From the NCBI GenBank assembly GCA_965198115.1, contig OZ240241.1, forward strand, positions 192,001 to 256,000: DNA of 64,000 bases, given 5' to 3'. Of this stretch, positions 21,812 to 56,506 are shown piece by piece. The notes under the pieces are model-generated. The model did not search any database. It had not been told where the DNA came from and was given only the letters and a program-made list of their open reading frames with translations. The first letter of the stretch is position 1. Every line of letters starts with the position of its first letter. The DNA is from Candidatus Latescibacterota bacterium. GTDB taxonomy: Bacteria; Latescibacterota; UBA2968. Both the position numbers and the translations under genes were made by a program.

Positions 21812-21843
21812 CAGGCAGCCGGTCACATTCGATTCCGATCCCA

Positions 21844-21923
21844 CTCATCCCGAGTAGACCACCTCACAGAGCCTTTTGACTATTCCGGTGCATAGCAACT
21901 AAACCTGGTGGTATCGAGGGAGA
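21844..21923 (+). repeat. REP-like repeat, copy A (51-nt insert)
   Basis: CTCATCCCGAGTAGAC (21844-21859), insert 21860-21910, GTATCGAGGGAGA (21911-21923). Confidence 0.85.
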
Positions 21924-22004
21924 CGGGATCCTACCGAAGGTCGGGACTTTCAACTCGAACGACGGATCTGGCGCGTAATCGAAGTCAATGTATCGCCTGA
22001 AGGC

Positions 22005-22083
22005 TCTCCCTCGATACGACCAGGCATCTGTTTGACCTGACAGAAGAGCGATTGAATCCACGAATTCGTCTACTCGGGATGCG
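22005..22083 (-). repeat. REP-like repeat, copy B (50-nt insert)
   Basis: TCTCCCTCGATAC (22005-22017), insert 22018-22067, GTCTACTCGGGATG (from 22068); reverse complement of the copy A arms. Confidence 0.85.
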
Positions 22084-22158
22084 GATGGGTCTTCGCAGTG
22101 GCTTGATTCCGAATGTGTTCTGTGCTCCAATGTAGTAGCCAGGAGCGAGGAAGACGGG

Positions 22159-22467
22159 ATCGATTACTACTGTTACATGCTTCGGTGCGCTGACAAGTCG
22201 ATCTACGTTGGCCACACGGATGAACTCGAAACACGCATCGCAGAACATCATCAGGGCATCGCGTCAACTTACACAGCCGCACGGCGACCCTTGGTTCTGA
22301 TCTGGACGGAAATGTTTCCCAGCCGCGACCGGGCTTTCGTTGCAGAGCGCAGGATCAAGAAGTGGAGCCGCGCGAAGAAACTCGCACTGGCTGATGGTGA
22401 TTATGAACTGTTGAGTGTGCTGGGCAAGAAGAAAACGTGGAAGGAACACAGGGAAGGGCGACTATAA
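22159..22467 (+). CDS. Stand-alone GIY-YIG nuclease-family protein (about 100 aa)
   Basis: YYCYMLRCADKSIYVGHT..LETRIAEH..G..STYTAARRP..L..E....R..A...ERRIKKWSRAKK. The first ATG (22177) lies inside the GIY strand; the natural start position (22159) is ATC. Confidence 0.88.
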   Translation: MDYYCYMLRCADKSIYVGHTDELETRIAEHHQGIASTYTAARRPLVLIWTEMFPSRDRAFVAERRIKKWSRAKKLALADGDYELLSVLGKKKTWKEHREGRL

Positions 22468-22491
22468 GGTCACGCTGACTAAGCGGTGGGC

Positions 22492-22575
22492 TCTCCCTCG
22501 ATACGACGAGTATCTGGCTTCTATATCGCCGCCCATTGACACTTCTGATTTCGTCTACTCGGGATGAGCGGATGG
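22492..22575 (-). repeat. REP-like repeat, copy C (48-nt insert)
   Basis: TCTCCCTCGATAC (22492-22504), insert 22505-22552, GTCTACTCGGGATGAG (22553-22568), then CGGATGG as in copy B. Confidence 0.85.
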
Positions 22576-22739
22576 TGTTGCACAAGATGTCTTGTCAGAT
22601 TTTAACGCGGTCTGAGCGGAGTGGGTTAGCCATTCCGGATTCATTGCCTTCCTCCAAAAGTATTGTGAGTATGTAGCGCGATCATAGTCAGGATGGACGT
22701 TCACAACAATGTTCTATCTACAAGGTTCTATGTTCCATG

Positions 22740-24182
22740 GAGCTCAGGTCAATAGGTGTGTAAAAGAAATCAGGCGGCCATCTTCCCGGCTTCGACCTGC
22801 GGTCCGGTTGAGTGTTTCTGATCGTAGACTTGTTGTAGCAAGTGTGGCGCGGTGAGTTTCCTGAATCGGCTCTCTGCGACCTTGAGCGTACGCCAGATGA
22901 GAGTCGTGGCGTTCCTGACTTTCTTGAATCGCCTGGCGGCGTTTGTGCGAAGCCGAACGGAAGCAAAGGGGCTCTCGACGACGTTCGTGGTTCTCAGGTG
23001 TTTCCAGTGTTCCTTCGGGAAGTCGTAGAACGTGACCATCCGATCCCAGTTTCTTTCGAGCGTCTCCACGGCGGCAGGGAACTGTGAGCGATACCGTGCG
23101 GCAAAGCGTTTCCGGAGCTTCTCGGCCTCCTTTTTCGTGCCGGCATAGGGGATCTGGACGAGCAGTGCGCGGGCTTCAGCCTGTGCACGCTTGGCGACCT
23201 TGTCGAGCACGTTGAGGATCTTGTGGTTCCAGCACCGTTGTTGCCGGCTCTCTGGCCAGACCTGATCAACGGCCGCCCAGATGCCCATATTCCCGTCCGC
23301 GGCGATCAGGACAGGATGTTCGAGCCCGCGATCCCGGAGATCCCGGAGCACCGTGAGCCAGGATTCTGTAGACTCTCGATAACCGGGTTCTATCGCCAGG
23401 ATCTCCTTGCTGCCGTCGCTCATCGCGCCGATCACGACCAGCAGACACGCCTTCTCGCGCTCGAGCCCGGCTTTGACGTAGATGCCATCAGCCCAGGCGT
23501 AGACCAGTTCGCGATTATCCAGACGCCTTTCTTTCCAGTCCTGGAAGTCGACCTCCCACTTCCCTCGAAGACGAGCGATCGAGGTCGGCGAAAGCGGCGC
23601 GCCATCACCGAGCAGCGCACGCAAAGACAACTCGAAGTCGCCCTGGGAGAGACCGTGGAGATAAAGGTCGGGAAGCAGATCTCCAATGGCCCTGGTTCTC
23701 CGGGCGAACAGGGGGAGGATGCGGCTTTCAAACCGCTCTTCCAGACCACGAACCCGGGGACGCCGGACCTTGATCGTTCCGCAGCTCGTCGAGAGACGCC
23801 GGGGCTTGCCGTAGCCGTTCCTGTAGCCCCTGGAGCTATCGACCTCGGCTCGGCGCTCATACCACGACCGGCCCAAGAACGCGGTCGCCTCCTCCTCCAG
23901 AATGGACTGGAACCGGCCCTGGATCTCTTCACGGATCCAATCGTCAACCGTCTCCCACGTCGGCATGGACTTCAATGGGGCTCTATGCGTATGTTCCTTC
24001 ACGGCGATCCTCCTTCCCAACCGGGCCTCTCACCCGGTTTTGTGTGAATCAACTATCTCACGGGACTCACCGCGCCACACTTGCTACAACAAGTCTACGA
24101 TCAGAAACACTCAACCGGACCGCAGGTCGAAACCGGGAAGATGGCCGCCTGATTTCTTTTACACACCTATTGACCTGAGCTC
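22740..24182 (-). mobile_element. IS256-family element with 118-bp terminal inverted repeats
   Basis: 22740-22857 is the reverse complement of 24065-24182 (one mismatch seen); no clear TSD. Confidence 0.88.
22770..24002 (-). CDS. IS256-family (Mutator-like) transposase
   Basis: GYRNGY, PRVR, YLHGLS, WADG, RESTESW, ADG, QRCWNHK, RTTNVVES; GTG start after AAGGAGG. Confidence 0.93.
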   Translation of the reverse strand: MKEHTHRAPLKSMPTWETVDDWIREEIQGRFQSILEEEATAFLGRSWYERRAEVDSSRGYRNGYGKPRRLSTSCGTIKVRRPRVRGLEERFESRILPLFARRTRAIGDLLPDLYLHGLSQGDFELSLRALLGDGAPLSPTSIARLRGKWEVDFQDWKERRLDNRELVYAWADGIYVKAGLEREKACLLVVIGAMSDGSKEILAIEPGYRESTESWLTVLRDLRDRGLEHPVLIAADGNMGIWAAVDQVWPESRQQRCWNHKILNVLDKVAKRAQAEARALLVQIPYAGTKKEAEKLRKRFAARYRSQFPAAVETLERNWDRMVTFYDFPKEHWKHLRTTNVVESPFASVRLRTNAARRFKKVRNATTLIWRTLKVAESRFRKLTAPHLLQQVYDQKHSTGPQVEAGKMAA

Positions 24183-31137: not shown

Positions 31138-31176
31138 CCCTTCGATACGCGGCCTTCGGACGCTACTCAGGGCAGG
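31138..31176 (-). repeat. REP-like repeat, short copy F, followed by an 8-mer triad (31174-31197)
   Basis: CCCTTCGATACGC-ggccttcggac-GCTACTCAGGG; then AGGCAAGA CGCCAAGA CACCAAGA. Confidence 0.75.
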
Positions 31177-31738: not shown

Positions 31739-31815
31739 TCCCTCGATTCGACTGTCGTCTGGCAGCGCGTAATTGAGATCAATGGCACGTCCTGAATACG
31801 TCTACTCGGGATGAT
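31739..31815 (-). repeat. REP-like repeat, copy D (50-nt insert)
   Basis: TCCCTCGATTC (31739-31749), insert 31750-31799, GTCTACTCGGGATGA. Confidence 0.85.
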
Positions 31816-33164: not shown

Positions 33165-33299
33165 GGGAACCTTGATTGGGATTGATGTGGGGGCCCGTTC
33201 GTGCTTCGATATATGGTGACCATTGAGATTCGTGCAGTGCTGGGTATCAACTTATGTGAGACACCTACTCAGCATGAACGGGTTCTCGCCGCTTTGCAA

Positions 33300-33383
33300 C
33301 CGTTCATCCTGAGTAGCGAAATCGCGCGAATCAGAGCATGTCGCTCGGCCATCCGGTTGAGTCGCTTATCGAAGGGCGAACGG
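33300..33383 (+). repeat. REP-like repeat, copy E (46-nt insert)
   Basis: TTCATCCTGAGTAGC (33303-33317), insert 33318-33363, GCTTATCGAAGGG; closed by ccgttc/gaacgg. Confidence 0.8.
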
Positions 33384-56317: not shown

Positions 56318-56506
56318 TGGCCTGTTACGTTAATCGCCCTTTAAAATCAGAAGAGCAGGGTCACTTCGAGCCCTTCGTCAGGCTCAGGATAGACTCCGTC
56401 GAGAAGTCCCCATTCGCGATTCGTAATGGGCGTGTTCTCGACTACGCTCGAACTGACGCCGCTCAGTCTGGCAGTAAAAGTCCAGTACTACTTTCGTGAC
56501 AGGCCA
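56318..56506. mobile_element. MITE-like element carrying nested REP-like palindromes
   Basis: TIR TGGCCTGTTACG / CGTGACAGGCCA with cta/tag outside; internal gtcacttcgagc...gtcgagaa (56360-56405) and inverted ttctcgactacgctcgaactgac (56435-56457). Confidence 0.6.

Follow-up and report, generated by a model that had tools for sequence, protein, structure and literature searches.

The 64,000-nucleotide stretch of DNA analyzed here (the window) comprises positions 192001-256000 of C1, the single contig of an 8.43-Mb genome with 59% GC (G000). It harbors a stand-alone gene for a GIY-YIG nuclease that is bracketed by two hairpin repeats, copy A upstream on the forward strand and copy C downstream on the reverse strand. 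The features are, by position in the window:

21841-21923, forward: copy A, long-loop hairpin with the C-G stem variant; left arm 21849-21859, right arm 21911-21920, insert 51 nt; outer member of the cassette
22005-22086, reverse: copy B, long-loop hairpin with the C-G stem variant; arms 22068-22078 and 22008-22017, insert 50 nt; convergent doublet with A
22159-22467, forward: stand-alone GIY-YIG nuclease gene, UPF0213-like, about 102 amino acids; PF01541; 1ywl/1zg2 by sequence and fold; probable start at ATC 22159
22492-22571, reverse: copy C, long-loop hairpin with the C-G stem variant; arms 22553-22563 and 22495-22504, insert 48 nt
31138-31172, reverse: short-loop form of the long-loop repeat; arms 14 nt apart, tip GAA
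31732-31818, reverse: copy D, long-loop hairpin with the C-G variant; arms 31800-31810 and 31740-31749, insert 50 nt
33195-33281, reverse: copy E1, long-loop hairpin whose outer stem has a compensated change
33300-33383, forward: copy E2, long-loop hairpin, divergent partner of E1; insert about 47 nt when counted in the manner of the original prediction
56434-56453, reverse: mini hairpin whose stem differs (TTC); this type is found beside the second small GIY-YIG gene of the genome

The original prediction placed A, B and C around the gene, A and B as an inverted doublet upstream and C downstream, with inserts of 51, 50 and 48 nt and an insert of 50 nt in the distant copy D. The coordinates agree on every point, and C starts 24 nt past the stop codon of the nuclease gene (22467). 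Copy E is present but is itself a divergent doublet. An IS256-family element (22739-24065, reverse strand) lies 170 bp downstream of copy C. The matches listed include more than 40 copies in the genome with 99.7-100% identity, which indicates recent activity. Judging by the ORF list, an inverted partial copy of one of its ends may follow just beyond 24065. Another IS256 copy interrupts the second UPF0213-like GIY-YIG gene (C1:509000-510650), which has a TTC-stem mini hairpin upstream and a CCT-stem mini hairpin downstream.

The copies in the window belong to a dispersed family. The genome contains 73 long-loop copies with inserts of 40-56 nt, no two of which are alike. Their arms are nearly invariant, as predicted, with 20 mismatches at 1387 sites, a count biased downward in that the copies were ascertained on their arms. 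The predicted fixed length of the inserts is true only in the looser sense of similar lengths (mean 50.8, sd 3.3, for the first set of 76 copies, from which four weak-arm hits were removed and to which B was added); the inserts of the 73 copies have modes of 49, 52 and 52-54 nt by subtype. An excess of certain remainders when insert length is divided by three (36/22/18) was considered as a reading-frame bias and is explained by these subtype modes. Counted singly, arms are no more frequent in the window than chance predicts, whereas paired arms number 58 in the genome and 0 and 0 in two shuffles. A profile search (E up to 10) recovered all 73 copies and 28 further matches, about 10 of which resemble decayed or composite copies by eye. 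Doublets account for 36 of the 76 copies first collected, in 18 pairs, 15 of them convergent, with two recurring subtype pairings. The same arms close loops of three sizes: mini (3-6 nt), short (12-14 nt) and long. There are 167 mini hairpins in the genome compared with 9-10 in shuffles, and about 21 copies of the short form. Among mini hairpins the written strand favors the C-rich strand (82:43, P 0.0006).

The nuclease consists of one small domain of 96-102 amino acids, below 150 amino acids and with no second domain by Pfam. The ORF matches the Pfam GIY-YIG model PF01541 (E 2.4e-15, 57 bits against a cut-off of 22.6) and has no NCBIfam match. The UPF0213 proteins 1ywl and 1zg2 are its best sequence matches in the PDB (E 2e-13 and 5e-13) and rank first and second by Foldseek with the predicted structure (pLDDT 91.9); the fold also matches Slx1 and UvrC. 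The domain has the Tyr, Tyr-x-Gly, Arg, His and Glu of the GIY-YIG superfamily, and among 62 aligned rows G18, R26, H30 and E63 are invariant and Y16 nearly so. The first Tyr requires a start upstream of the ATG at 22177, which excludes the first beta-strand. The in-frame ATC at 22159-22161 aligns with the Met of homologues; any other in-frame start would either lose the first catalytic strand or add a long extension. Translation probably starts at this ATC, as a non-canonical or damaged start. The gene call of a relative (P0003, 79% identical) likewise begins at the downstream Met, and this protein carries a short deletion ahead of the Glu helix. A quick tree of 79 rows places the nuclease in a 68-row clade apart from 11 proteins that we take to be SsnA-like by the general look of that family (SH-aLRT 99, with few columns and a long query branch). 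The nuclease is probably outside the Ssn (cd10448) clade.

The predicted tie between the repeats and the GIY-YIG family extends well beyond this genome. Eighty homologous loci from several phyla were fetched; 71 had full flanks and were counted, and 9 were dropped. When the architecture was defined without reference to stem sequence, this generalized hairpin was found within 250 bp of 68 of the 71 genes (shuffles 1-7) and on both sides of the gene in 53 (shuffles 0). Orientation is also kept: a forward copy lies upstream in 60 loci and a reverse copy downstream in 53, as do A and C. The motif of this genome occurs at 42 of the 80 loci (shuffles 2-9), and the loci without it mostly have the same architecture with a different stem. 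All three long copies at the gene carry the C-G stem variant, which is rare in the genome (10 of 73 copies; P 0.002). The original prediction asked whether arm sequence co-varies with GIY-YIG phylogeny. Stem types follow clades of the tree, but the clades mostly follow host taxonomy, so co-evolution of stem type and nuclease is not established. A Deltaproteobacterial locus and a KSB1 locus are nested among Anaerolineae in the tree and share the Anaerolineae arm type, which hints at joint transfer of gene and repeat. At one locus of a further genome (G026), a close homologue of the nuclease is surrounded by three nearly identical, directly oriented units, each about 130 nt long with a loop of 54 nt; it is a young long-loop form.

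The long-loop form was found in 5 of 41 relatives and in 7 of 168 genomes of the phylum, some of the latter being nested copies, and in at least 122 metagenome stretches. The metagenomes include an AT-rich family of long-loop copies with loops of 43-49 nt. Its host appears Bacteroidota-like because a flanking sigma factor matches TIGR02985; the AT-rich pattern was present in 0 of 401 sampled genomes of the class suggested by TIGR02985, and the nuclease of this family was not found. Across the flanks examined, a homologous gene lies near 4 of the 122 metagenome loci listed, and the loops there are structured or nested. Random long loops beside a nuclease gene were seen only in the window. Searches of viral contigs returned one nested copy and, by two peptide patterns, no homologous gene.

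The arms were proposed to pair as a stem with a GA-rich internal loop. Covariation supports the pairing, although the copies A-D fold no better than shuffles. The stem consists of a 4-bp helix, tandem GA.GA, a bulged T and an inner 4-bp helix. Across the 73 copies the stem shows compensation (T-A in 63, C-G in 9, a mismatch in 1), and the inner stem has several sequences, with its four positions still paired in 59, 51, 64 and 66 copies. Folding of whole copies A-D is at the level of shuffles (z -0.3 to +0.6) in a nearest-neighbor DNA model, which is without terms for sheared GA pairs. The case for pairing therefore rests on covariation and not on computed energy, and the long hairpin may need a protein to form. 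The triloops of mini hairpins are GNA in 119 of 125, with all four bases at N; the GNA triloop is described as a signature of DNA mini-hairpins (PMC13037366). Together, the stem covariation and the GNA triloops suggest that the hairpin is recognized as single-stranded DNA and not as RNA. A role as RNA was considered and rejected: there is no Rfam match, no terminator and no bias to transcription. The cores of the 73 loops have no hidden structure with either DNA or RNA parameters (z about -0.1).

Captured sequence, one of the two roles first suggested for the inserts, is not supported. The 73 cores match the genome (mean raw score of the best match 13.9, compared with 13.7-13.8 for shuffled cores) and their own flanks (7.4 compared with 7.5) no better than shuffled cores, and phage and plasmid searches with cores A and B, 2 of the 73, gave matches only at E 9-10. 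The contrary view named in the original prediction, that the loops are diverged descendants of one ancestral loop, is correct for related families, but the cores of A-D cannot be aligned above chance (z -0.3 to 2.4). In a subfamily of a relative (G002) that was found through its loop motif, the loops are plainly homologous, with intact arms in 8 of 11 copies and decayed arms in 3. In the AT-rich family, 15 loops of 44 nt align without gaps at a mean core identity of 56%. The TGA subtype of this genome scores -6.0, compared with -10.8 for the null, and about 13 of its 18 copies retain CGNAG at the center of the loop; other subtypes of this genome are barely above the null. From the related families we infer common descent for the cores of A-D as well. 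At an orthologous site in G002 and a second relative (G010), all 23 of 23 arm positions match, third codon positions differ at 50%, and the loop, whose length has gone from 54 to 42 nt, is still recognizable; the site is empty in this genome. Copies at orthologous sites are thus passed on vertically.

Intact short copies nested in the loop are a plausible origin of the insert length. In other genomes such nested copies give inserts of 42-56 nt, and 14 inverted and 3 clear direct cases were seen among 235 inserts. Remnants of nested arms were not detectable in the cores of this genome (z -3.1 to +1.1). In the AT-rich family, 17 of 20 inserts are 44 nt long, a narrower spread than expected from drift. 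Divergent copies of that family (L178, L147, L160 and L219) are separated by a spacer of about 85 nt that varies but can still be aligned, and in the 44-nt loop of the family conserved columns recur at steps of about 10 nt.

The original prediction drew an analogy to RAYT transposases among their REP repeats. Inverted doublets as a unit are indeed shared with REP dimers, REPINs and BIMEs (here the 18 pairs), and REP dimers are described with variable spacers of like length between conserved arms (Di Nocera et al. 2013, PMC3733652). However, the partner of REP is an HUH tyrosine transposase, whereas the bracketed gene here encodes a GIY-YIG hydrolase. The REP loops described in that source are at most about 27 nt, and the short form reported here may be one of its CGTC families (PMC3733652). 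The neisserial NIMEs, in which dRS3 repeats flank RS elements, likewise have conserved arms that enclose variable segments and are dynamic at syntenic sites. More than 100 families of variable 50-150-bp segments are described for NIMEs, and recombination was proposed (Bentley et al. 2007, PMC1797815). As described there, each RS element is located between complete hairpins, and the elements make up multi-copy families in arrays, whereas here a single hairpin holds the variable segment as its loop and no copy recurs.

The better analogue is the Ssn system and its NTS/SRM hairpins. SsnA (cd10448) is described as a single-domain GIY-YIG protein of about 100 amino acids, and Ssn genes as bracketed by their hairpin repeats (Chenal et al. 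2025, PMC11893778), which are oriented and also dispersed genome-wide, as here. Tyr, Tyr and Glu are at matching positions. According to the same source, SsnA cuts single-stranded DNA just 5' of its hairpin and still cuts when the loop is removed or arbitrarily extended (PMC11893778). The differences are that the protein here is UPF0213-like and probably outside the SsnA-like clade, and that the stem here has tandem GA.GA with a GNA tip or a 40-56-nt loop, the elements described for Ssn being 20-50 nt (PMC11893778). The published SRM pattern does not occur within 5 kb of the gene, numbers 74 genome-wide compared with 103 and 106 in shuffles, and has any occurrence at only 2 of the 80 homologous loci. 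By layout and anatomy the locus likely works like Ssn/SRM; it is not classed as Ssn because it lacks the SRM pattern and probably lies outside the clade. The UPF0213 proteins 1ywl and 1zg2 remain the closest relatives by sequence and fold. No repeat association of UPF0213 proteins was found in print, nor a description of a UPF0213-like clade with this hairpin or of such long loops, in literature mostly other than subscription journals.

On balance, the hairpin is probably bound and cut as single-stranded DNA by the nuclease, and the inserts of about 50 nt are likely inherited loop filler, not guides. The enzyme would read the stem and ignore the loop, by analogy with SsnA. The long form likely arose through entry of additional sequence, plausibly another short copy, into the loop, and then spread as singles and doublets. 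Selection would keep the arms while the loops drift, and occasionally a loop would be replaced wholesale by the loop of another copy through recombination at the arms. Swapping within the genome should leave near-identical pairs of loops, and the best nearest-neighbor identity among cores of this genome is 69%, which counts against that last step.

Comparisons of strains indicate how the loops change. In one strain pair, 0 of 70 core positions changed where third positions differ at 23 of 290; in another, 1 of 33 changed; and in the next, pooled core changes are 17 of 70 compared with 35 of 137. Steady hypermutation of the loops is ruled out by these pairs. Between L178 and L224, one core differs at 15 of 37 positions without gaps while the neighboring core differs at 2 of 33 (Fisher P 0.0008). 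The strongly changed core and its orthologue are no more alike than paralogues are (57% mean). L178 and L237 have different subtypes at the same site. We read the history of the loops as stasis broken by rare wholesale replacement, on the strength of two strain comparisons in a different lineage. In this genome, three doublets share 79-85% of their linkers but only 38-49% of their cores, and no core has a neighbor above 69%. Replacement from outside the cell or rewriting fits these figures better than simple copying within the genome. No variant was listed over copies A-E in runs X1-X3, all from a single study; the assembly may itself derive from X1 and X2, and X3 covers the copies partly.

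These patterns leave some room for a bolder interpretation, which we consider unlikely. The doublets would be gene-less mobile elements served by a single-stranded DNA nuclease of the UPF0213 clade and no transposase, and the loops would be fixed-length cassettes that are exchanged in blocks or rewritten upon cutting. If true, this would be a nuclease-driven, arm-bounded system of DNA swapping, present in several phyla and subject to a length rule for which current REP biology has no explanation. A related proposal, for which we see only a slim chance, is that the doublets are live, REPIN-like non-autonomous elements copied by the nuclease itself, the loop being rewritten by an error-prone step at each copying or repair. 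This would account for the absence of any core pair above 69% among 73 copies when short forms have many identical copies, for the doublets with shared linkers and dissimilar cores, for the common non-consensus flanks of B and C around unrelated cores, and for doublet gain and loss at syntenic sites. The stasis in strain pairs opposes it, as does the fact that orthologous cores are recognizable across species. GIY-YIG enzymes hydrolyze DNA, and no joining step is known for them.

It is also doubtful, to our judgment, that the long copies are old relics kept by an unrelated host function, such as a site for a host protein or a structure in transcripts, with the nuclease cassette sharing ancestry only. 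The survival of arms at orthologous sites over about 50% third-position divergence fits such a function. Long copies also persist where a clear intact cognate gene is missing from the assembly: G010 (91% complete) has 9-10 long copies and only a distant, stop-interrupted GIY-YIG match, and G007 (84% complete) has long copies and no GIY-YIG match. Loops are more conserved than third positions in 3 of 4 strain-pair copies, and 68 of the 73 copies of this genome lie between crude ORF calls. However, by the same crude calls the copies have no orientation bias to transcription (24:21), sites are not common to this genome and a congener at the two places checked, and the rare arm variant clusters at the nuclease gene. 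The remaining alternative is a dispersed non-CRISPR repeat-spacer system in which the inserts would be captured sequence or serve as guide-like determinants, perhaps in the form of RNA. It is suggested by unique cores of similar length between near-invariant arms and by a conserved center that, in some subtypes, separates two variable parts of the loop, but is very improbable given cores that match neither genome nor flanks (nor, for A and B, phages or plasmids), column-wise common descent in two other families, DNA-type GNA loops, the lack of an Rfam match, and a protein of one small domain.

If the nuclease does cut its hairpins, the Ssn concept of tiny site-specific single-stranded DNA nucleases with their own hairpins would extend to a second, UPF0213-like branch with a lineage-variable stem. 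This would provide a candidate function for the uncharacterized UPF0213 family and possibly new specificities for cutting single-stranded DNA. The natural, random loops of 50 nt already offer a way to test whether the arms alone are read. Should loop replacement prove to be driven by the nuclease, it would also explain how repeats promote the recombination that has long been suspected for NIME-like elements.

Finally, the mini hairpins of this genome fall into four main stem classes (CCT 74, CCC 45, TTC 42 and ACT 27), which outnumber the two small GIY-YIG genes found in the genome. Composite copies, in which a mini hairpin lies within the outer stem of a long-loop copy, occur at C1 positions 2577156, 3057394, 3066718, 5390390, 5730757, 5779383 and 5382414.
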